Origin: Selenomonadaceae bacterium
Lineage (GTDB): Bacteria; Bacillota; Negativicutes; Selenomonadales; Selenomonadaceae
Direction: 5' to 3'
DNA length: 30,307 nt
NCBI GenBank assembly: GCA_017445435.1
Contig: JAFSUE010000158.1
Location: 1-30,307 of the forward strand
The notes under the pieces were generated by a model. The model worked only from the letters and a program-made list of their open reading frames with translations, did not search any database and was not told where the DNA came from. Each line of letters begins with the position of its first letter. Within the stretch, counting starts at the first letter, position 1. The position numbers and the translations under genes were made by a program. This document shows positions 3,620 to 27,948 of this stretch, piece by piece.

Positions 3620-3646
3620 GGTTAAGTGGTAGCGTTTAGGAAATTC

Positions 3647-3676
3647 CTACTCACTACTCACTACTCACTACTGACT
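3647..3676. repeat. Heptamer array (CTACTCA)3-CTACTGA abutting the miaB ATG
   Basis: Read directly. Confidence 0.9.
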
Positions 3677-4996
3677 ATGACAAAAAAATTTAAAATTCTA
3701 ACTTACGGCTGCCAAATGAACGTTGCCGAATCTGAACGTATGGCAGGACAACTTTATAAAATCGGCTACAAATTGACGGACGATATTGCGGCGGCTGACT
3801 TAATTTTAATTAACTCCTGTTGCGTACGCGCTACGGCGGAGGATAAAATTTACGGCAAGATTGGCGAGCTTAACCGCTACAAGTTGCAGAATCCCGCGTT
3901 GATTATCGGCGTTATGGGTTGCCTTGCGCAGAAAGACGGCGACGACTTGATTAAACGTTATCCCAACGTTGACTTCGTATTGGGAACTGCGCGGCGCGGT
4001 GAACTTTCTAACGTTGTGGAAAGTTTTGAATCTGCGCGGAAAAGATTTGTCGACACTTCCAACGTTAGCGGACAAATTATTGAGCCTGAAGTTTTTCCCA
4101 TTCGCACTGGTAAAGTGTCTGCCTTCGTGCCGATTATGTACGGTTGCAACAATTTCTGTACCTATTGCATTGTGCCGTATGTTCGCGGACGTGAAAGAAG
4201 CCGTCCTGCCGCCGAAATTTTCGCCGAAATTAAAAACGCCGTCGATAATGGCTACAAGGAAATAACTTTGTTGGGGCAAAACGTCAACTCTTACGGTAAA
4301 GATTTGCAGGAGATGACCTTTGCAAAACTTTTAGCCGCTGTTGATAAAATTGAAGGGCTTAAACGTCTTCGCTTTATGACTAGCCATCCGAAAGATTTAT
4401 CAGACGAATTAATTGACGTTATGGCGAACGGTAAAAATATTTGTGAACATATTCATCTGCCTGTACAGTACGGTTCAAATAAAATTTTGCAAAAGATGAA
4501 TCGTGTTTACACCGTCGAAAAATATTTTGAGCTTGTCAAAAAAATTCGCGCCGCCATTCCGAATATCAGTTTGACGACTGATTTAATTGTCGGCTTTCCT
4601 GGCGAAACGGAAAAAGATTTTCAGCTGACGTTAGATTTTCTGCGCGAAATTAAATTTGATATGGCATTCACTTTCATTTATTCCGAACGTAGCGGGACGC
4701 CTGCCGCAAATTTTGACGGCAAGGTTGACGACGAAACTAAACACCGCCGCCTTAATGAATTAATGGCGGTACAAAATGAAATTAGCCTTGCGAAAAATTT
4801 ACAGCTGGACGATACGACGGTTGAAGTTTTAGTCGAAGGCGCTAGCAAGACTGACAAAAATATTTTCACTGGTCGGACGCGTACAAATAAATCTGTACTC
4901 TTCCCGCATGGTACGGAAAGTGCTGGCGATTTAATCAACGTGAAAGTTAATCAAGTGCAAACTTGGATTCTGAAAGGCATTCGAGATTTTTTATAA
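3677..4996 (+). CDS. miaB: tRNA 2-methylthio-N6-isopentenyl-A37 methylthiotransferase MiaB (alternative start GTG 3626)
   Basis: TYGCQMN, NSCCVRATAE, GCLAQ, radical SAM motif CNNFCTYC, IVGFPGET, C-terminal TRAM domain (GRTRTNK). Confidence 0.95.
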   Translation: MTKKFKILTYGCQMNVAESERMAGQLYKIGYKLTDDIAAADLILINSCCVRATAEDKIYGKIGELNRYKLQNPALIIGVMGCLAQKDGDDLIKRYPNVDFVLGTARRGELSNVVESFESARKRFVDTSNVSGQIIEPEVFPIRTGKVSAFVPIMYGCNNFCTYCIVPYVRGRERSRPAAEIFAEIKNAVDNGYKEITLLGQNVNSYGKDLQEMTFAKLLAAVDKIEGLKRLRFMTSHPKDLSDELIDVMANGKNICEHIHLPVQYGSNKILQKMNRVYTVEKYFELVKKIRAAIPNISLTTDLIVGFPGETEKDFQLTLDFLREIKFDMAFTFIYSERSGTPAANFDGKVDDETKHRRLNELMAVQNEISLAKNLQLDDTTVEVLVEGASKTDKNIFTGRTRTNKSVLFPHGTESAGDLINVKVNQVQTWILKGIRDFL

Positions 4997-5028
4997 AATG
5001 CGAAATGTAAGGGCATAATGATAAGATG

Positions 5029-5172
5029 GAGTTGAATAACGGACTTAAAGTTCACGTAGGATAGAAAGGGGCGCGCAAGGACGCGCGCCCGCCCGCGCAA
5101 ATCGCGTGATGCGATTTCAGCGGGCATGTTTCTTTTTGCTACTTTTTCTTTGCGCCAAAGAAAAAGTAGTTT
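5029..5172 (+). ncRNA. Candidate structured RNA/REP-like element, copy 1
   Basis: GGGCGCGC-AAGGAC-GCGCGCCC; GCCCGC..AAATCGC-GTGAT-GCGATTT..GCGGGC; perfect 14-bp CTACTTTTTCTTTG-cgc-CAAAGAAAAAGTAG. Homologous to 17352-17550 on the minus strand. Confidence 0.6.
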
Positions 5173-5258
5173 AATTAAAAATTTTTCTAAAAACTTTAAG
5201 TTTACTAACAACCTCTAAAATTTGAACGCTACCATATAAAAATTTGCAGGAATTTCAT

Positions 5259-6682: not shown

Positions 6683-6724
6683 TTGAATGAAGAATTTTTA
6701 ATTACGCATTACGAATTACGCATT
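6680..6724. repeat. Bipartite heptamer array: TTGAATGAAGAATT then (ATTACGC/ATTACGA)3, spanning both convergent stop codons
   Basis: Read directly. The DAK2 C-terminus MRNS* is encoded by the array. Confidence 0.8.
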
Positions 6725-7947
6725 ATGTTTGCGTTTTCAAGAGCTGAAAAGCCTGCCGAAAATTTTTTCAAGGCGGCTACAGCGTCATTAAAAGATTCAG
6801 TCAAAACTAATTCAACGCGACTTCCCAAAAGTCTTTTAGCTTGCCGAAAAATTAATTTGTAATCGTCACTCGACGAAACTAAAACGTAGCTTGACGCTAA
6901 ATCCGAATGCGCCGCGCCAACAATTTCCGATACCGATGGCGAAGATTCTTCACTGCCAGAAACTAAAATTGACGCGCCAGCATCTTGCAAAATTTGCGCT
7001 TCAGCCGCATTTCTAGCTACTGCAAGCGCCGCAACTTTCATCAACGCATCATGCGCGGGGAGTTGATGACTTTCGCTCATATTCGTAATTTTCACGTCGT
7101 GCAAAGGTCCCCAGCCCAACGCTTGATCAATCGCATTGCCAACGTGATCTGTGTGTAAGTGAATATCCAGCGTACCGCTTGACCGTTCGACGATTGAAAA
7201 ACTGCTGAAATCTTTCATACGCTGTTCAACTTCATAAATATTCGCCTTAGAATTTTTCACGCGAAGACGTACGCAGTACGGTCGAACTCTATCGTTGCGC
7301 GGGTCAGGCATATTTTTATGAATGCCTAAGCCCAACGATAAACTTACGGCGGGCGATACAAAATTTCCGTCAAGACCTTTCAAGCAACCTTTCAAAAAGC
7401 TGAACATAATGTGTGCGCCAGCGTCATTGTGTCCATTTTTTTCGACGGCATCTTCACCCGCTTTAATCGCCGTAGATAAAATTTCTGAAATTGGTTTGCC
7501 GTCACGAACTGCGCGGTAAGCACCTTTAGCAACTGCCTTTGCAACAAATATGAATGGGCTGTCATGATTTTCAGGCATAACACGTTGGGAATACAAAATG
7601 CCATACTGAAAAGCCTTGCCAAATTCAGAGCCAGTAGCTTCGTATTTGCCAATTAAACCAGTAGCAATTCCGTGAAACATTTGCGCCAAAACTACGCCAG
7701 CATTTCCGCGAGCACCAAATACAGCCGCCGTTGCAACACGTCTACTCAAGCCGCCTAAGCTGTCGTCTTTAGCTTCTGTCAATGGCATAACCGCCGCGCC
7801 TATCGTTCGCAAAATGTGTGTACCAGGCAAAGTTCCCGCGCCTGTCTGCGAATTTATATTTTCATATTCTAATAAAAATTCGCTGTACGCGCCTGAAATC
7901 ATTCTCTTGAAATCTCCACCAGTTATAACTTCTCTACTGCCCGTCAT
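6709..7947 (-). CDS. DAK2-domain/fatty-acid-kinase FakA-like protein, degenerate and shortened (412 aa)
   Basis: GARGNAGVVLAQMFHG, PYC, DIHLHTD, VKITNMSESH. Start reassigned to ATG 7947 behind a GGTGGTGA RBS. Confidence 0.8.
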   Translation of the reverse strand: MTGSREVITGGDFKRMISGAYSEFLLEYENINSQTGAGTLPGTHILRTIGAAVMPLTEAKDDSLGGLSRRVATAAVFGARGNAGVVLAQMFHGIATGLIGKYEATGSEFGKAFQYGILYSQRVMPENHDSPFIFVAKAVAKGAYRAVRDGKPISEILSTAIKAGEDAVEKNGHNDAGAHIMFSFLKGCLKGLDGNFVSPAVSLSLGLGIHKNMPDPRNDRVRPYCVRLRVKNSKANIYEVEQRMKDFSSFSIVERSSGTLDIHLHTDHVGNAIDQALGWGPLHDVKITNMSESHQLPAHDALMKVAALAVARNAAEAQILQDAGASILVSGSEESSPSVSEIVGAAHSDLASSYVLVSSSDDYKLIFRQAKRLLGSRVELVLTESFNDAVAALKKFSAGFSALENANIMRNS

Positions 7948-13470: not shown

Positions 13471-14502
13471 TTGAGGACTGGCAAAATAAAAAAAATTTCA
13501 GCGTGTTACATCGTGAAGAATGAAGCTGAAAGGTTAGCACTGTCTTTAAAAAATCTGCGCGGCATTGACGAAATTATAATTGTCGACACTGGCTCAACTG
13601 ATAACACGTTGGAAGTTGCAAAAAAATTTGGCGCAAAAATTTTTTGTACGAATTGGGCTGACGATTTTTCCACGCCGAGAAATTTAGCGTTGAGTCAAGC
13701 AACTGGCGATTGGATAATTTTTTTAGATGCGGACGAATATTTTACGGCGGCGACGGCTGATAATCTTCGTAGCGTGATTGAAAGTATTGACGCTACGGCG
13801 GCGAACGGACTTTTAATTTATCTTGTCAACATTGACACGGCGGACGGCGATAAAATTTTAGATACGACCTTCGTATTGCGGATTTACAGGAATTTGAACG
13901 GGCTAGCGTACGTTGGAAAAATTCATGAGGAATTGCGGCTTGACGGAAAAAGTTTGACAAATATAATTCCGTTACCGCCGAAATTTTTAACGCTGAATCA
14001 TACAGGCTATTCCGCGACGTTAAATAAGATGAAGGCGGCGCGAAATTTAAAGTTGCTGTTGGAAGAATTGGCGCAGACGAATGAACCGCAAAGAATTTAC
14101 GGCTATATTGCGCAGTGCTATAATGGGCTAGAAGATTTTATCAACGCGGAAAAATTTGCTAAGCTTGACATTGAATCGGGCGTACGGCGTTCAACTTTTT
14201 CTAGCAGTTCGTATAGAATTTTGCTGGATATTTTGTCGAAGGATTCAACGCGGCTTGAGGAGCGAAAAAATTTTGCTATGATGGCGGCTGAAGATTTTCC
14301 CGACTTGCCAGACTTTTTAGCGGAGCTAGCGGAATGTTACGCCGCGCAGAAAAATTTTGAGGCGGCAATAATTTTAATGACGGGTGCACTTGAAAATTTT
14401 GCAAAGTACGACGGCATTGAGCCTTCCATTTTCGACGAAGTACGGGCAAATTTGGCGCGTCAACGTATAAAAATTTGGACGCGTGAATTTATAAAGAATT
14501 AA
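13471..14502 (+). CDS. GT2 glycosyltransferase with TPR-like C-terminus (type often linked to flagellin/protein glycosylation)
   Basis: ISACYIVKNE, IIIVDTGSTD, W.DDFS..RN, WIIFLDADE, GKIHE, HTGY. Confidence 0.88.
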   Translation: MRTGKIKKISACYIVKNEAERLALSLKNLRGIDEIIIVDTGSTDNTLEVAKKFGAKIFCTNWADDFSTPRNLALSQATGDWIIFLDADEYFTAATADNLRSVIESIDATAANGLLIYLVNIDTADGDKILDTTFVLRIYRNLNGLAYVGKIHEELRLDGKSLTNIIPLPPKFLTLNHTGYSATLNKMKAARNLKLLLEELAQTNEPQRIYGYIAQCYNGLEDFINAEKFAKLDIESGVRRSTFSSSSYRILLDILSKDSTRLEERKNFAMMAAEDFPDLPDFLAELAECYAAQKNFEAAIILMTGALENFAKYDGIEPSIFDEVRANLARQRIKIWTREFIKN

Positions 14503-14528
14503 GAATTGAGAATTAAAAATTAAGAATT
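14494..14528 (+). repeat. Heptamer array (AAGAATT)5, degenerate, containing the GT2 stop codon
   Basis: aagaatt aagaatt gagaatt aaaaatt aagaatt. Confidence 0.85.
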
Positions 14529-14544
14529 TTTTGAGGTGAAAGAC

Positions 14545-15945
14545 TTGAAAACTAAAACTTACGTTGAAGATATTGAAAGGGCGCTTTATGATATTCGCGA
14601 CGCCGACGAATCAATTTATAAATCTGACGCAGGCTTGACTGAAGAAATTATCCGTGACATTTCTGCGCGGAAAAATGATCCAGCGTGGATGTTGGACTTT
14701 CGCTTAAAGGCGCTTGAAACGTATAAAAAAATTTCCCTGCCAACGTGGGGACCTGACATTTCAAATTTGAATATGGATGAAATTGTAACCTACGTCAAGC
14801 CCAACGCTAAGCAAGTTTCTGATTGGTCTGAAGTTCCTGACGAAATTAAAAATACTTTTGACAGGCTGGGAATTCCAGAGGCTGAAAAAAAATCTTTAGC
14901 TGGCGTCGGTGCGCAGTATGATTCAGAAGTCGTCTACCACAACATACAAAAAAATTTGACAAGTCAAGGCGTCGTCTATACCGATATGGAAACGGCACTT
15001 CGTGAACATGAAGATATTGTCCGTGAATATTTTATGACGCTCATTCCGCCGAAAGATCATAAATTCGCAGCACTGCATGGCGCGGTATGGTCGGGCGGAA
15101 GTTTTGTTTACGTACCGAAAAATGTTAATGTGGAAATTCCATTGCAATCTTACTTTCGACTCAACGCGGCAGGCGCTGGACAATTTGAACACACGCTGAT
15201 AATTGTTGAGGAAGGCGCGAATTTACATTTCATTGAAGGTTGTAGCGCCCCAAAATATAACGTCACAAATTTACATGCAGGTTGCGTTGAACTTTTCGTG
15301 AAGGAAGGAGCGCGGCTTAGATATTCGACGATTGAAAATTGGTCACGAAATATGATGAATTTAAATACAAAACGTGCGCTTGTCGAAAAAAACGGCTTGA
15401 TTGAATGGGTAAGCGGTTCTTTCGGTTCGCACGTTTCAATGTTATATCCTTGTAGCGTTTTGCACGGCGAAGGTGCACGCGCTGAATTTACTGGCGTAAC
15501 TTTCGCTGGCAAAGGTCAAAATCTTGATACAGGCGCGATTGTCATTCACGCGGCGCCAAAAACTTCGTCGAACATTAACACGCGGACAATTTCAAAATCA
15601 GGTGGCGCGGCTACGTACCGTTCAGCCGTCAAAGTTACGAAAAATGCGCCGTTCGCTAAATCGTCTGTCAACTGTGAATCACTTATGCTTGACGACGAAT
15701 CAAGATCGGACACGTTGCCTGTAATGGATATTGAAGGCGCGGAAGCTGATATTGGACACGAAGCTAAGATTGGAAGAATTTCCGACGAAGCAATTTTCTA
15801 TTTAACTGCGCGGGGAATTTCTGAAGACGAAGCACGCGCAATGATTGTACGCGGATTTGTTGAGCCGATAGCTAAAGAATTGCCGCTTGAATACGCCGTT
15901 GAGATGAACAATTTAATTTCAATCGAACTTGAAGGCGCTAATTGA
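14545..15945 (+). CDS. sufB: Fe-S cluster assembly scaffold SufB (TTG start preferred over GTG 14536)
   Basis: LAGVGAQYDSE, WSGGSF, GQFEHTLII, FIEGCSAP, LHAGCVE, IGHEAKIG, MIVRGF. Confidence 0.95.
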   Translation: MKTKTYVEDIERALYDIRDADESIYKSDAGLTEEIIRDISARKNDPAWMLDFRLKALETYKKISLPTWGPDISNLNMDEIVTYVKPNAKQVSDWSEVPDEIKNTFDRLGIPEAEKKSLAGVGAQYDSEVVYHNIQKNLTSQGVVYTDMETALREHEDIVREYFMTLIPPKDHKFAALHGAVWSGGSFVYVPKNVNVEIPLQSYFRLNAAGAGQFEHTLIIVEEGANLHFIEGCSAPKYNVTNLHAGCVELFVKEGARLRYSTIENWSRNMMNLNTKRALVEKNGLIEWVSGSFGSHVSMLYPCSVLHGEGARAEFTGVTFAGKGQNLDTGAIVIHAAPKTSSNINTRTISKSGGAATYRSAVKVTKNAPFAKSSVNCESLMLDDESRSDTLPVMDIEGAEADIGHEAKIGRISDEAIFYLTARGISEDEARAMIVRGFVEPIAKELPLEYAVEMNNLISIELEGAN

Positions 15946-15978
15946 ATTAAGAATTAAAAATTAAGAATGTAGAATTTT
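15944..15978 (+). repeat. Heptamer array (GAATTAA)-type, 5 units, between convergent genes
   Basis: gaattaa gaattaa aaattaa gaatgta gaatttt. Confidence 0.85.
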
Positions 15979-16657: not shown

Positions 16658-16966
16658 ATGTTGGGATTAAATAATCTTGCAGACGGTCTGCTGAATGCGG
16701 CTGAAAAAGTTGAAGACATCAACAGTAAACTTACGGCTAAAAAAAATGCCGTCAAAGAATCTGTTTCAGAAAAAATCAGCGACGCTAAAGAGGCAGTCAA
16801 CGATAAAATCAACGATGCTAAAATGGCGGTTGATGACGCGAAAGACGCCGCAAATATCGTAAAAGAATCTGTTAGCGACGCTAAAGACAACGTTGCAACG
16901 GCGATGAAAAATGTTGCTAGAAATTCTTTGAAGTCGACTGTTGAAGAAATTAAAAGGCAAAGTTAA
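16658..16966 (+). CDS. Hypothetical amphipathic-helix protein (LEA/apolipoprotein/phasin-like repeats)
   Basis: GAGGTG RBS; recurring (S/N/D)DAK and VKESVS motifs; no Pro or aromatic residues. Confidence 0.7.
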   Translation: MLGLNNLADGLLNAAEKVEDINSKLTAKKNAVKESVSEKISDAKEAVNDKINDAKMAVDDAKDAANIVKESVSDAKDNVATAMKNVARNSLKSTVEEIKRQS

Positions 16967-17003
16967 ATTTCAGCGTTAAAATTTTGGAGGTGCAAATTTT
17001 TTT

Positions 17004-17300
17004 ATGGACAAAGATAAACTTACAAAGCTTGTAGCAGAAAAAGTTGACGCGGCTTGCAAGGCAAGTACTCATCCTAAAAAATTTTTCATTACGGAAAATG
17101 GACGCGGCGTAGTTGACGGCGGCGACCTTTACAATGCCGTTTTGAAAGACGTTTTGGACGTTGTGAAAGTGGCGCTTGTCGATATTTTGGACGAAACTTT
17201 AAAAGTTCCCGAAGTGCCGAAGGTTGAAACTAAAGTTGAATCGAAAGTTGAATCTAAGGGTGCGCCCAGTAAATCTTCCGCGAAGGATAAAAAGAAATAG
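17004..17300 (+). CDS. Hypothetical protein with low-complexity C-terminus (KVET/KVES x3)
   Basis: GGAGGTG RBS; 12-nt periodic repeat near 17221-17258. Confidence 0.75.
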   Translation: MDKDKLTKLVAEKVDAACKASTHPKKFFITENGRGVVDGGDLYNAVLKDVLDVVKVALVDILDETLKVPEVPKVETKVESKVESKGAPSKSSAKDKKK

Positions 17301-17351
17301 TTTGTTGTTAGCGGCGTATTGATTAAGTGGATTTTCTATTTTAATTTTTTT

Positions 17352-17550
17352 TTAAACTACTTTCTTTTGGCGCAAAAGAAAGTAGCAAAGAAAACATAGC
17401 GGCATTTGCGCGCTCGCGCTTTACTTTTCAGTAACAAAAGCAATACACCGCGTCCTTGTGTTCCCAAATATTCAACTCCGCAGAGCGCCATAAATGCCGC
17501 AAAGTACCATCATTTTTCAGCTTTGAATTTTTTACGTAGTTATTCAACTC
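17352..17550 (-). ncRNA. Candidate structured RNA/REP-like element, copy 2
   Basis: The minus strand carries GAGTTGAATAAC, CAAGGACGCG, GCGCAAAT and CTACTTTCTTTTG-cgc-CAAAAGAAAGTAG, as in copy 1. It adds GCGGCATTT/AAATGCCGC, GCGCTC/GAGCGC and TTACT-GAAA-AGTAA stems. Confidence 0.6.
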
Positions 17551-17588
17551 TACCTAATTACTAACACCTAGAAAGGAGCGTGAAATTT

Positions 17589-17864
17589 TTGGATAAGAAA
17601 AAAATTGTTCATTCTGCCCGTGAAAAAATTCGTGAACAGGATAATTCCTCAAGTGGTCGTGAAGCAGTTAGCGGCGAAAAATCACTTTTGGGCGACGTGA
17701 TTGGTGCGTTTATAAATATGGTTGGCGATACGTCAAATGATTCTGCTGATAATGAATCTGCGCGGGAAAGTGGACGTAGCGGCAAAACTTCAGGACGTAA
17801 GCCGCAAGGTCAAGGGCGCGTTGCATCTGTTGGAAGTCGTGTTGCCGAACAACTCAAAAAATAA
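17589..17864 (+). CDS. Hypothetical Ser/Gly/Arg-rich small protein (TTG start; alternative GTG 17580)
   Basis: AAGGAG RBS 10 nt upstream; open frame of about 91 aa. Confidence 0.65.
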   Translation: MDKKKIVHSAREKIREQDNSSSGREAVSGEKSLLGDVIGAFINMVGDTSNDSADNESARESGRSGKTSGRKPQGQGRVASVGSRVAEQLKK

Positions 17865-18030
17865 TTAGGAATGCGTAATTCGTAATGCGTAATGATAAAT
17901 CTTACCACCTACTCACTACTGACTACTAACTAAAAAAAGATTGATAATTAGTAAGGCGGTATGTTAAGAATTAAGAATTAAGAATTTTTCCCTACTCACT
18001 ACTAACTACTCACTACTAACTACTTACTAA
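17862..18030. repeat. Composite heptamer region: TAATGCG-type (17862-17893), CTACTNA (17909-17931), TAAGAAT x3 (17965-17986), CTACTNA x5 (17992-18030)
   Basis: Read directly. Confidence 0.9.
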
Positions 18031-18038
18031 AAAAATAA

Positions 18039-18068
18039 TTGATAATTGGCAAGGCGTTATGTTATAAT
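18039..18068 (+). promoter_or_regulatory. Sigma70 promoter of the TAXI gene
   Basis: TTGATA-18 nt-TATAAT with extended -10 TG; AGGAGG RBS downstream. Confidence 0.7.
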
Positions 18069-19074: not shown

Positions 19075-19080
19075 TTTATT

Positions 19081-19148
19081 TAATGCGTAATTAGGAATGC
19101 GTAATTCGTAAATTAATGCGTAATGCGCAATGAGGAATGCGTAATTAA
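19081..19148 (+). repeat. Heptamer array TAATGCG/TAATTAG/GAATGCG/TAATTCG, 9 units
   Basis: Read directly; one 5-nt phase slip at 19109-19113. Confidence 0.88.
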
Positions 19149-19155
19149 AATTTTT

Positions 19156-19181
19156 AGCCTCCCAATCAGGGGGCTTTTTTT
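19156..19181 (+). terminator. Intrinsic terminator after the TAXI gene
   Basis: AGCCTCC/GGGGGCT stem followed by T7. Confidence 0.75.
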
Positions 19182-21395: not shown

Positions 21396-21461
21396 ATTAG
21401 CTTTTAGCTTTTAGGATTTTTTACTACTCACTACTAACTACTGACTACTCACTACTCACTA
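21396..21461. repeat. Bipartite heptamer array: (TTTTAGC/G)-type then (CTACTNA)5, in the fliF-fliG spacer
   Basis: Read directly. Confidence 0.88.
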
Positions 21462-21533
21462 ATTTTTAGAAATTTAATAGGAGCTGGAACTGCTATAAGA
21501 ATTTTTAATTCTAAGTTCCTAGCCCCTAAAAAA

Positions 21534-24232: not shown

Positions 24233-24277
24233 TTGAATTAATTCTTAATTCTTCATTCTTAATTCTTAATTCAATTA
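24233..24277 (-). repeat. Heptamer array (GAATTAA-type on the minus strand) directly after the flgB stop
   Basis: ttgaatta attctta attcttc attctta attctta attcaa tta. Confidence 0.88.
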
Positions 24278-26110: not shown

Positions 26111-26122
26111 CTCCCCTTTTTT

Positions 26123-26157
26123 TAATTAGGAATTCTTAATGCGTAATGCGTAATGTA
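26123..26157 (+). repeat. Heptamer array TAATTAG-GAATTCT-(TAATGCG)2-TAATGTA
   Basis: Read directly. Confidence 0.8.
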
Positions 26158-26160
26158 AAA

Positions 26161-27087
26161 CTAAACTTCCCTAACGTCATTTTTCATTAAGTCACGGTGT
26201 TCAAGGTTGACGGCGTAACCTTTTTTCTTCAACAGCTCAAAAATATGTTTCGCAATGAAAACGCTACGGTGCATTCCGCCAGTACAGCCGACAGCTAGCA
26301 CAAGTTGACTTTTGCCCTCACGAACATATTGCGGCGTTAAAAATTCTATCATTGGATCAAGCCGCTTTAAAAATTCCTGCGTGACAGGCTTTTCTGCAAT
26401 GTACGCGGCAACTTCAGGAACTGCTCCGCTTTTATGGCGCATTGACTCAATGTAAAATGGATTCGGCAAAAATCTAACGTCCAACACCAAGTCAGCGTCA
26501 AGCGGCATTCCATACTTAAAGCCGAAAGATAACACAGAAATATTCATTTCGTCGCCTTCATGAATACCGAAAAGCCGCCGAATTTTTTCGCGTAAATCAG
26601 CTTTCGTCAAGTTCGACGTGTCAATAATATAAGTAGCCTTGCCGCGTACAGATTCAAGCCGTGCCCGTTCCTTTGCAACGCCGTCAGAAATTCTAGTAGA
26701 AGGCGCCATTGGATGACTTCTGCGCGTCTCTTTGTAACGGCGAATAATCGTATCGTCTGAAGCGTCCATAAAAATTAATTCGTAGTCGCGGTCATTTTTA
26801 TCCATATCTTCAAGCACTTGTAAAAGCGTGTCGAAAAATTCACGGCTGCGCGTATCGACGACAAAGACAACGTGACTAACGCTGTTTACTGCATGTGCGC
26901 AAAGTTCCACGAACTTAGGAATTAAAATTGGCGGCAGATTGTCTACGCAAAAATATCCTAAGTCTTCAAGGAAACGGCAAGCTTGAGTTTTGCCGCTACC
27001 GCTCATGCCAGTCACGATGATAATTCGCGGCTTGTCTAAAAGTTTATCGTTGCCATCAACGTTTAAAGTTTTCGTGTCTGTTTCCAT
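26161..27087 (-). CDS. rapZ: RNase adapter / P-loop NTPase RapZ (YvcJ)
   Basis: VTGMSGSGKT, GYFCVDNLP, RYKETRRSHP, SFGFKYG, DVRFLPNP, GCTGGMHRSV. Confidence 0.96.
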   Translation of the reverse strand: METDTKTLNVDGNDKLLDKPRIIIVTGMSGSGKTQACRFLEDLGYFCVDNLPPILIPKFVELCAHAVNSVSHVVFVVDTRSREFFDTLLQVLEDMDKNDRDYELIFMDASDDTIIRRYKETRRSHPMAPSTRISDGVAKERARLESVRGKATYIIDTSNLTKADLREKIRRLFGIHEGDEMNISVLSFGFKYGMPLDADLVLDVRFLPNPFYIESMRHKSGAVPEVAAYIAEKPVTQEFLKRLDPMIEFLTPQYVREGKSQLVLAVGCTGGMHRSVFIAKHIFELLKKKGYAVNLEHRDLMKNDVREV

Positions 27088-27100
27088 AACTCACCCCATG

Positions 27101-27205
27101 TTGAATTAAGAATTTAGAATGTAGAATTAAGAATTAAGGATGATACTACTAACTACTGACTACTAACTACTGACTACTAACTACTAACTTCAAATTAAGA
27201 ATTAA
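27101..27205. repeat. Bipartite heptamer array: GAATTAA-type x5 (27103-27137), CTACTAA/CTACTGA x6 (27146-27187), AAATTAAGAATTAA over the cobJ stop
   Basis: Read directly. Confidence 0.92.
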
Positions 27206-27948
27206 AAGTTGTAACCGCGCGGCGTAACCATAAAATTTGACTTGACGAAAGTTTTTGAATTGCCAATTAAAACTAGCGTGAACATATTTATTTCTTCGCG
27301 TGTAAAATCTTTCAACGTCGAAATAACTTTTCGTTCATCAAGACGCCCAGCATTCGTGACGATACCGACGGGCGTATTTTCTGCGCGGAAGTTCAACAAA
27401 ATTTTCTGCACTTCGTCAATGTACGTGACGCGGCTTTTACTTTTCGGATTGAACAACGCAATTACAAAGTCACCTTCCGCCGCCAATGCCACGCGCTTTT
27501 TAATCAGTTCGTAAGGCGTCAGCCAATCACTTAAGCTGATAACGGCGAAGTCGTGCATAAGTGGAGCGCCGAGAATTGCCGCCGCTGAATTTAGCGCAGA
27601 TACGCCAGCCGCAACTTCAAATTTTGGTTGAAGATTTTCTGGCAAGTTCAAAATCATTTCGATTAAAAGTCCCGCCATACCGTAAATGCCAGCGTCGCCG
27701 CTTGAAATTACTGCCACGTTCAAATTTTTTTGCGCCTCATCAATGGCAACTTGTGCGCGTTGAACTTCCTGCCGCATGCCCGACGCCAAAATTTTTTTGC
27801 CTGCCGTCAATTCGCCAATCAATTCAATGTACGTTTTGTAGCCGACAATCACATCTGCCGCGTCAATAAGCGCCCTAGCTTTAGGCGTCATTTCATCAAG
27901 GTTGCCTGGTCCAATGCCGACGACTGAAATTTTTCCGCAATTATTCAT
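27202..27948 (-). CDS. cobJ: Precorrin-3B C17-methyltransferase CobJ/CbiH
   Basis: VVGIGPG, IVGYKTY, SSGDAGIYGMAG, LGAPLMHDF..ISLSD, LYNP-like LFNPKS, FMVTPRGY. Confidence 0.93.
   Translation of the reverse strand: MNNCGKISVVGIGPGNLDEMTPKARALIDAADVIVGYKTYIELIGELTAGKKILASGMRQEVQRAQVAIDEAQKNLNVAVISSGDAGIYGMAGLLIEMILNLPENLQPKFEVAAGVSALNSAAAILGAPLMHDFAVISLSDWLTPYELIKKRVALAAEGDFVIALFNPKSKSRVTYIDEVQKILLNFRAENTPVGIVTNAGRLDERKVISTLKDFTREEINMFTLVLIGNSKTFVKSNFMVTPRGYNF

Follow-up and report, generated by a model that had tools for sequence, protein, structure and literature searches.

What kind of repeat has entered the narrow spacer between two small genes of a rumen Selenomonadaceae MAG, and does the fold it carries serve the DNA or an RNA? 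The window, meaning the whole stretch of 30,307 nucleotides that was analysed, contains two structured elements, here called copy 1 and copy 2. A sequence-only reading had taken the second of them, placed at 17352-17550, for one of two copies of a mobile/REP-like element, or else for an independently transcribed sRNA, with a structure that is either under selection or maintained by arm-to-arm correction. To answer both parts of the question we delimited the element, followed it through its own genome and through related ones, asked which of its helices are conserved, and compared its cargo with known RNAs.

A TA-flanked transposon in an operon spacer

The hairpin, the 9-bp stem, the GGA motif, the pair of GAGTTGAATA motifs and the GAAA hairpin of copy 2 are all present where the sequence-only reading had placed them, and the minimum-free-energy fold of the minus strand yields the 9-bp stem, the multiloop and the GAAA hairpin again. 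The extent had to be corrected, as the element runs from 17311 to 17554 and ends in inverted repeats. Its parts and those of copy 1 are the following (coordinates, strand, feature):

17311-17554, minus: whole MITE copy (copy 2), 244 nt; similarity limits in an alignment of 26 copies with flanks, end logos from 49 copies
17555-17556: TA at the 5' end, a putative target-site duplication
17309-17310: TA at the 3' end, 8 nt past the stop codon of ORF 17004-17300
17540-17554, minus: 5' terminal inverted repeat GGTAGAGTTGAATAA; family consensus GGTGGTGTTGAATAA
17311-17326, minus: 3' terminal inverted repeat TTAATCAATACGCCGC; consensus TTATTCAACACGACC, with a 1-nt indel in copy 2
17492-17500, minus: 5' strand GCGGCAUUU of the closing stem (9 bp); from the predicted fold, invariant in 32 copies
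complement of 17451-17458, minus: GGA motif CAAGGACG, which fits CANGGANG, the consensus of CsrA sites, and is similar to an AYGGAY loop
17399-17407, minus: 3' strand AAAUGCCGC of the closing stem (9 bp); from the predicted fold and the comparison across MAGs
17386-17395, minus: U-rich linker GUUUUCUUUG, proposed Hoogsteen (third) strand; mirror of the hairpin pyrimidine arm in every variant class
17357-17385, minus: terminal 13-bp hairpin with 4 variable bp (CUAC/GUAG), then 9 pyrimidine-purine pairs and a CGC triloop
17327-17356, minus: A/T-rich spacer from the hairpin to the 3' inverted repeat, differing in length and sequence among copies
5024-5215, plus: copy 1, a member of the same superfamily that differs in its core but has the same 3' module; inverted repeats degenerate
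5022-5023 and 5216-5217: TA flanks of copy 1
5139-5169, plus: terminal hairpin of copy 1

The terminal inverted repeats (TIRs) of copy 2 measure 15-16 nt, and in an ungapped comparison with the TA-flanked 17-nt end patterns its two ends agree at 15/17 and, for the 3' end with its 1-nt indel, at 11/17 positions. No ORF of 60 aa or more lies within copy 2, the ORF list being empty between 17300 and 17580. On the minus strand GAGTTGAATA is found at 17469-17478 and at 17541-17550. The internal occurrence had been read as a second GAGTTGAATA of the core; it does exist, but as a copy-2-specific variant of the consensus GAGTTGGAC, and its counterpart at 17541-17550 belongs to the 5' inverted repeat.

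Instead of the two copies assumed before, a BLAST search with both copies against their own assembly (2.08 Mb, 345 contigs, 81% complete) gave ~190 matching places. Copy 2 is one of roughly 60-90 copies of a tiny non-autonomous transposon in the source genome, where the 3' hairpin module was counted ~60 times. Using profile searches for both ends we identified 173 ends in this genome, and 49 bounded elements with lengths of 90-260 nt, and the alignment of 26 full copies with their flanks showed that the unit starts with GGTGGTGTTGAATAA directly behind a TA and finishes with TTATTCAACACGACC directly in front of a TA. Both flanks carry the TA in 42 of the 49 bounded copies; a C or T precedes the 5' TA in 43/49 and an A or G follows the 3' TA in 47/49, so that the flanks fit YTAR. 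Such a CTAG-like target presumably recalls the behaviour of IS630/Tc1-mariner elements, which we take as a lead only. Many insertions are located inside the heptamer arrays of the genome, where the 7-nt phase is regained if the site is rebuilt with a single TA, and in a heptamer register test d=2 was the best solution in 6/10 strong cases and in 20/49 overall. Flanks and heptamer phase taken together suggest that the TA is duplicated upon insertion, and among the empty sites found here no alignable orthologous one shows this duplication base for base.

The modules are intergenic in 58/60 cases, though ~84% of the assembly is coding according to a crude ORF call, and the upstream gene has the same orientation as the module in 38 cases versus 18. 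One third of the copies, copy 2 included, run antisense to the adjacent genes. Overall the copies diverge by 15-27% and fall into a few subfamilies. As side observations, elements are often found directly after stop codons, and in some copies heptamer arrays grow from a hairpin arm.

That the element has moved can be seen at the locus itself. The orthologues of ORF 17004-17300 and ORF 17580-17864 are only 9-12 nt apart in G075, G045 and G042, and the same spacer measures 279 nt in the source genome, where it is occupied by copy 2. In addition, a 755-nt contig from the metatranscriptome run X15, which is ~95% identical, joins 17247 to 17570 via 46 other letters; as it skips 17248-17569, it represents an allele without the element. 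Because the flanking genes adjoin without it in three related species and in the X15 contig, the MITE has inserted into an operon spacer, and the empty sites that had been proposed as a check are indeed present in relatives. Over 17365-17415 the word depth in DNA runs reaches ~100x that of the flanks, as expected for a repeat. Copy 2 is antisense to its operon, and read-through from the operon across it would add only a palindromic hairpin. Presence of the element also varies at the site of copy 1: miaB lies upstream of it, synteny and element occupancy downstream of miaB differ between species, and the site is not conserved among orthologous loci, G048 being the only other genome with an element there.

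Thus, the terminal inverted repeats and TA flanks identify the element as a MITE and not as one of the REP type. From the earlier label mobile/REP-like the first half stands, given the empty sites and the 49 bounded copies, and the second half falls with the TIRs and the TA flanks. A transposase with these inverted repeats was not found in the source genome or in its relatives, which does not imply absence in a fragmented MAG that is 81% complete. IS630 (DDE_3) had no match in the source genome, and the IS630 copies of the relatives G013, G003 and G057 are without the inverted repeat. TIR pairs more than 400 nt apart were considered as autonomous elements and rejected, as they enclose DUF3084, GH1, NirDL-like and RNase Y genes and are half-elements or neighbouring copies.

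Conserved helices and a mirror-image linker as proposed third strand

The terminal hairpin of copy 2 reads CUACUUUCUUUUG-CGC-CAAAAGAAAGUAG on the minus strand (arms also written CTACTTTCTTTTG / CAAAAGAAAGTAG, with a 3-nt loop). In the source genome we counted 57 perfect 13-bp stems and ~8 with one mismatch, belonging to four sequence variants each of which is fully paired, and this pairing is far beyond chance. As G.U and A.C mismatches are equally rare (~8 each), the stem statistics do not identify the folding strand. The core of copy 1 consists of a P1 hairpin with an AAGGAC loop and a P2 hairpin with a GUGA loop. Across 55 modules from many MAGs 94.5% of the P1/P2 cells are paired, versus 75% after shuffling and 47-51% after sliding, with double changes in 18 of 26 pairs and a covariation score of 0.454 versus 0.117. 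All four Watson-Crick pair types occur at single positions of P1/P2, which also contain tandem G.A pairs, and a comparison of the modules showed that GNRA loops, tandem G.A pairs and GGA loops are strand-specific.

For the core of copy 2 we compared 32 copies from the source genome and G011. In these the 9-bp closing stem and a GCGC stem persist without variation, and the inner helices (the 6+3-bp stem and the multiloop) are paired to 52-79% with a covariation no better than that of controls. In other Selenomonadaceae MAGs the closing stem shows the compensated changes GCGGCAUUAA/UUAAUGCCGC and GCGGCAGUU/AACUGCCGC, and other core types have wholly different closing stems at the same position. 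The copy alignment further shows that the GGA motif of copy-2-type cores is kept as AAGGAC, AUGGGAC or AUGGAC plus GCGG. Selection on structure is therefore supported for the terminal hairpin, the closing stem and P1/P2 of the copy-1 type; it is not supported for the detailed inner fold of copy 2. Within the stems unpaired substitutions are not as frequent as compensated ones, in agreement with what the sequence-only reading had expected.

Closing stem, U-rich linker and 13-bp hairpin together form the 3' module of the element. Its linker lies directly 5' of the hairpin and is the mirror image of the pyrimidine arm, being neither a direct nor an inverted copy of an arm, and its complementarity to the purine arm (U to A, C to G) is therefore parallel. 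We counted these putative parallel triplex arrangements with a custom script. Among the asymmetric copies of the source genome 40 of 44 are mirrors, four are hybrids and none is a direct copy; elsewhere an exact mirror was found within 28 nt upstream in 92 of 95 distinct asymmetric instances, again with no direct copy, which adds up to 132 exact mirror cases in both sets. Arm and linker vary in length and position in a coordinated manner, and the mirror relation persists throughout. The asymmetric arm/linker pairs belong to six classes (T3CT4/T4CT3, T4CT3/T3CT4, T5CT3/T3CT5, T5CT4/T4CT5, T3CT3C/CT3CT3 and T3CT3CT4/T4CT3CT3), accompanied by the symmetric pairs T4CT4/T4CT4 and T3CT3/T3CT3, and in one locus (L029) a U*A-U triple is changed to C*G-C. 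This three-way covariation defines a module of ~45 nt.

Judged from these sequence patterns, the mirror arrangement is what a pyrimidine-motif major-groove triple helix of U*A-U and C+*G-C triples would require. Watson-Crick pairing of the linker with the purine arm, as in an antiterminator, was rejected, since it would favour a direct repeat and none was seen. Arm-to-arm correction, offered before as an explanation of the perfect stems, cannot account for the pattern because the mirror-symmetric third strand changes along with both arms. The 4 bp at the foot of the hairpin lie outside the pyrimidine-purine tract and covary freely (CUAC/GUAG, CAAC/GUUG, AUUA/UGAU, GUAU/GUAC). We propose that the U-rich strand would fold back into the major groove of the upper 9 pyrimidine-purine pairs of the hairpin and form 8-12 U*A-U triples together with one or two C+*G-C triples. 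The lower four covarying pairs may serve as a spacer for the turn, because a 5' tail entering the deep groove of an A-form helix should first meet pairs a few steps up, a geometry that follows from general A-form reasoning.

Relation to TwoAYGGAY RNA and other known systems

In most members of the genus the match is confined to the final 40-60 nt of the query and occurs in many copies, with 90-100% identity. The 3' module of G006 is preceded by P1, whose GC stem carries a CA(N)GGA(N)G loop, and by P2 with a GNRA or GGAU loop, and no clear inverted repeats were found around copies of this type. Other Selenomonadaceae MAGs carry the same 3' module behind at least five unrelated cores, many of these units being bounded by the same or related inverted repeats. 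An exact 23-mer of the hairpin occurs in more than 111 loci, which are mostly from Selenomonadaceae and cover six or more phylum-level groups; its other carriers are Nevskia, Lysobacteraceae, another gammaproteobacterium, Syntrophomonadaceae, Paludibacteraceae, Peribacteria and some Bacteroidales-labelled MAG contigs. Each of the 23-mer loci has the same linker and a GC-rich closing stem. In the gammaproteobacterial ones RF01731 (TwoAYGGAY) is matched above the cut-off, in L132 and L100 on the same strand and ~85-90 nt upstream of the module. The architecture of 23-mer, linker and closing stem is thus common to the family of copies described here and to the Nevskia/Lysobacteraceae units with RF01731 matches.

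The Rfam search itself found no family in the window at the gathering score and nothing relevant around either copy at E<=10. With RF01731 the best score on the source genome was 22.4 bits, obtained for a copy-1-type element, against a gathering cut-off of 43, and none of nine related loci matched at E<=0.01. Two AYGGAY hairpins on a common basal stem are absent in copy 2, which has a single AAGGAC outside any conserved hairpin; copy 1 has one AAGGAC loop besides its GUGA loop, and some relatives do have two AUGGAU or AGGAU loops. From the shared architecture the cargo appears to be a modular relative of TwoAYGGAY RNA and much older than the MITE that carries it, and copy 2 is a TwoAYGGAY-family repeat with a distinct core inside a TIR/TA MITE.

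TwoAYGGAY was listed as a probable RNA by Weinberg et al. 2010 (PMC2864571), and binding of CsrA to its loops was proposed by Gardner and Eldai 2015 (PMC4333381). For the Pseudomonadota a preprint from September 2026 (bioRxiv 10.64898/2026.09.22.753630) reports that the motif reaches as many as 202 copies, has an extended structure including a '3' pseudoknot', is flanked by arrays of short repeats and shows a 'mobile-element-like' expansion; it leaves the link between mobility and regulation open. Its main text does not use the words 'triplex', 'Hoogsteen', 'U-rich' or 'pyrimidine', and its TwoAYGGAY passages do not use 'triple' or 'transpos'. Like TwoAYGGAY, the family studied here is multi-copy and intergenic, with GC-rich hairpins bearing A(N)GGA(Y) loops, a copy number that varies between relatives, short tandem-repeat arrays nearby and 'mobile-element-like' behaviour, and the 23-mer loci of gammaproteobacteria carry RF01731 in the same unit. 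It differs in that the copies in the window score below the Rfam cut-off, in that the multiloop core of copy 2 is a different one with a single GGA motif, and in that the module lies inside a TIR/TA MITE. Repeats of the TwoAYGGAY type are among the most abundant unexplained structured non-coding elements of bacteria. Here a bounded element with inverted repeats and TA flanks encloses the RNA module, and empty sites are known, so that a cut-and-paste route can be tested; the source genome offers a clean case of mobility and several further covariation classes for this family.

On the DNA side the nearest systems are the Correia elements of Neisseria and the pneumococcal RUP, which are bacterial MITEs that duplicate TA (IS630/Tc1-mariner type). 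Like the family described here they have 100-260 bp, terminal inverted repeats, TA flanks and no ORF, are found in tens to hundreds of intergenic copies in either orientation and can sit inside operons. In contrast to them, the interior here is an RNA-type module conserved across phyla and not mere spacer DNA, several unrelated cores share the ends and the 3' module, and no partner transposase was found in the source genome or its relatives. REP/BIME elements and REPINs are likewise dispersed extragenic palindromes that may stabilise the upstream mRNA, but REPs are mobilised by RAYT Y1 transposases and have neither TIR nor TA, whereas our family shows no association with RAYT and forms a bounded unit of ~245 nt.

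On the RNA side the proposed triplex of the 3' module resembles the ENE/MALAT1 triple helices (PMC7583470, PMC13541005). Like them it would combine an A-rich tract with two U-rich strands, one in the Hoogsteen and one in the Watson-Crick position, would consist mostly of U*A-U triples with isolated C+*G-C, and lies at the 3' end of a structured domain. It differs from them as a predicted simple fold-back of the type Y-turn-Y-loop-R, with no internal-loop clamp on a tail, as well as in its bacterial host. Passages of the same reviews report ENE-like elements also in transposable-element RNAs of plants and fungi, and where they mention bacteria or prokaryotes, riboswitches and a group II intron are the sole bacterial examples (PMC7583470, PMC13541005). 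A long stand-alone U*A-U triple helix would therefore, as far as these passages go, be a new structural class for bacteria and, if true, a candidate for a portable RNA-stability element.

What the module may do

Taking all results together we regard it as probable that copy 2 and its relatives are MITEs that carry a TwoAYGGAY-family RNA module with a triple-helix 3' end. According to this model a transposase acting in trans would recognise the ~15-nt inverted repeats, insert the element at YTAR and duplicate the central TA, and copy 2 would have landed recently, in antisense orientation, in the 9-12-nt spacer of two co-transcribed small genes. The cargo would comprise a variable core with a GGA-loop motif, closed by a stem and followed by the nearly invariant 3' module. 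The module would act as RNA, and its triple-helical 3' end, once formed, might stabilise the transcript or serve as a handle for a protein. A more far-reaching version, in which the 3' module is the bacterial counterpart of ENE/MALAT1, a self-contained Y-Y-R 'cap' that protects or marks the 3' end of any RNA domain in front of it and has been spread across phyla on MITEs, is a tentative idea that we think may well be wrong. If it were true, insertion of a MITE would supply neighbouring transcripts with a ready-made module for RNA stability and possibly for CsrA binding.

The main rival to the RNA model is that the same fold works as DNA. In single-stranded or supercoiled DNA the combined mirror and inverted repeat would adopt H-DNA, an intramolecular triplex or a cruciform, with a role in transposition, in recombination or in the pausing of replication. 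H-DNA has its classic signature in mirror repeats of pyrimidine-purine tracts, and the elements are themselves mobile DNA; the near absence of G.U pairs, with G.U as rare as A.C mismatches, and the heptamer arrays that grow from the hairpin arm in some copies would also suit a function in DNA. This does not account for the GNRA tetraloops, tandem G.A pairs and GGA loops, which are RNA-type and strand-specific, nor for the orientation bias relative to neighbouring genes (38 versus 18). Moreover, TIR/TA transposition does not need an internal hairpin, and the module is kept in loci without recognisable inverted repeats such as those of G006. We therefore consider a role as DNA unlikely.

Could the hairpin instead be a transcription terminator, or a REP-like stabiliser of mRNA 3' ends, that was scattered by the MITE and whose linker symmetry is incidental? 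The hairpin is followed by UUUA in the source genome, the elements are intergenic and often begin right past stop codons, and E. coli REP elements are a precedent for the protection of upstream mRNA. However, the stem is A/U-rich, in most other taxa GAU, UGAU or ACA and no U tract follows the hairpin, a terminator needs neither a pure pyrimidine-purine stem nor a mirror strand that covaries in six classes, and an invariant 23-mer across phyla is not what this explanation would lead one to expect. A scan for terminators found no such site between 16900 and 17900. Such a role thus has a low probability in our view. The independently transcribed sRNA named in the sequence-only reading is a candidate for which the scan gave no promoter-like or terminator-like site either, and assembler contigs from public RNA runs, in which the element-free allele and the high repeat depth can be seen, revealed no transcript ends.

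It is very improbable that the element is purely selfish DNA whose stems only seem conserved through young copies and gene conversion of palindromes, that is, arm-to-arm correction. Many pairs never vary in the source genome, the closing stem is invariant in 32 copies and the copies fall into few subfamilies, all of which would fit a young family; yet 57 hairpins are perfect at 15-27% divergence between copies, single positions of P1/P2 take all four Watson-Crick pair types, different phyla share the conserved module, and conversion between arms cannot make a mirror-symmetric third strand.

Hardly any weight is left for the idea that, in place of a cut-and-paste MITE, this is a single-strand element that depends on its hairpin (of REP/RAYT or IS200/IS605 type, perhaps a guide-RNA scaffold): the conserved hairpin has GTAG at its end, clear inverted repeats are missing from G006-type copies and a partial Y1 transposase, the only one in the source genome, lies at a contig end, but Y1 (Y1_Tnp) occurs in just 8/61 genomes of the genus and is absent from the copy-rich G006 and G011, the TIRs and TA flanks are those of 49 bounded copies (TA on both sides in 42), and the window has no match to an RNA family of the TnpB/IscB type in Rfam. 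RAYT/Y1 was accordingly rejected as a partner, its occurrence being sporadic and not associated with the repeats.

Within the favoured model of a MITE with an RNA cargo, the GGA loops may be binding sites for CsrA. The consensus CANGGANG used for this comparison was taken in part from PMC4333381. CsrA is encoded in the source genome, and the P1 loops read CA(N)GGA(N)G, with only 1-2 such sites per element.

Heptamer arrays in the window and the interrupted small-ORF cluster

Tandem arrays of 7-nt units are present in nearly all intergenic spacers of the window, the units being TACTNAC, GAATTAA and AATGCGT, and such arrays are a frequent site of MITE insertions.

Heptamer arrays in the window
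3635-3697, heptamer array
6685-6725, heptamer array
14489-14530, heptamer array
15944-15978, heptamer array
17849-18049, heptamer array
19075-19156, heptamer array
21396-21481, heptamer array
24233-24274, heptamer array
26112-26165, heptamer array
27101-27210, heptamer array

At 16658-17864 the window carries three small co-oriented ORFs of 102, 98 and 94 aa, a cluster conserved across the genus. In relatives 9-12 nt separate the second ORF from the third, whereas in the window the MITE lies between them. The second protein has variable C-terminal tails, rich in lysine and serine.

Arrays inside and between MITE copies

Heptamer tandem arrays are also found internally in 9 of the 41 aligned MITE copies, all nine in the window's own assembly, G000.

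Array-bearing MITE copies (locus; G000 contig)
First group: L222, L224-L226; C265, C336, C257, C328
Second group: L223, L227, L243, L247, L252; C70, C176, C321, C87, C15

Within the aligned copies a (CTACTNA)n array can run from mid-core as far as the hairpin loop, replacing the linker and the 5' arm of the hairpin, an arm that in the MITE itself starts with CTACTTT; elsewhere the core centre is replaced by inward-facing GAATKNA and TAATTCT arrays. The heptamer arrays seen genome-wide therefore grow within elements too. According to a preprint (10.64898/2026.09.22.753630), TwoAYGGAY elements of Pseudomonas are adjoined by arrays of 5-6-nt repeats.

At L017 (G000 C97:3600-5588) a 5' half-element, consisting of inverted repeat and half core, and a 3' half-element, consisting of hairpin arm and inverted repeat, stand 1.5 kb apart and flank a DUF3084 gene; each junction carries heptamer arrays. 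Recombination between copies, or array growth that split a single element, could account for this arrangement. On another contig (G000 C42:2298-2682) two elements, one of copy-1 type and one of copy-2 type, which share the 3' module, are convergent, tail to tail, with about 50 nt between them.

IS630-type matches and modules in other genomes

Contigs of G013, a relative in the same genus, contain at least 16 matches to the IS630-type transposase domain DDE_3 (L032, L036, L038, L039), many of them fragments; in most relatives there are none. The matches appear to reflect an IS expansion specific to one lineage and with no relation to the MITE inverted repeats.

In two Nevskia MAG contigs (L141, L075) the 3' module is repeated in tandem at a spacing of about 685-720 nt, with matches to RF01731 (TwoAYGGAY RNA) between the modules on the opposite strand, a layout resembling the divergent doublets or arrays that the preprint (10.64898/2026.09.22.753630) describes. 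In a related Selenomonadaceae MAG a 6S RNA gene (RF00013, 60.6 bits; L170:4722-4903) lies about 800 nt from a 3' module.
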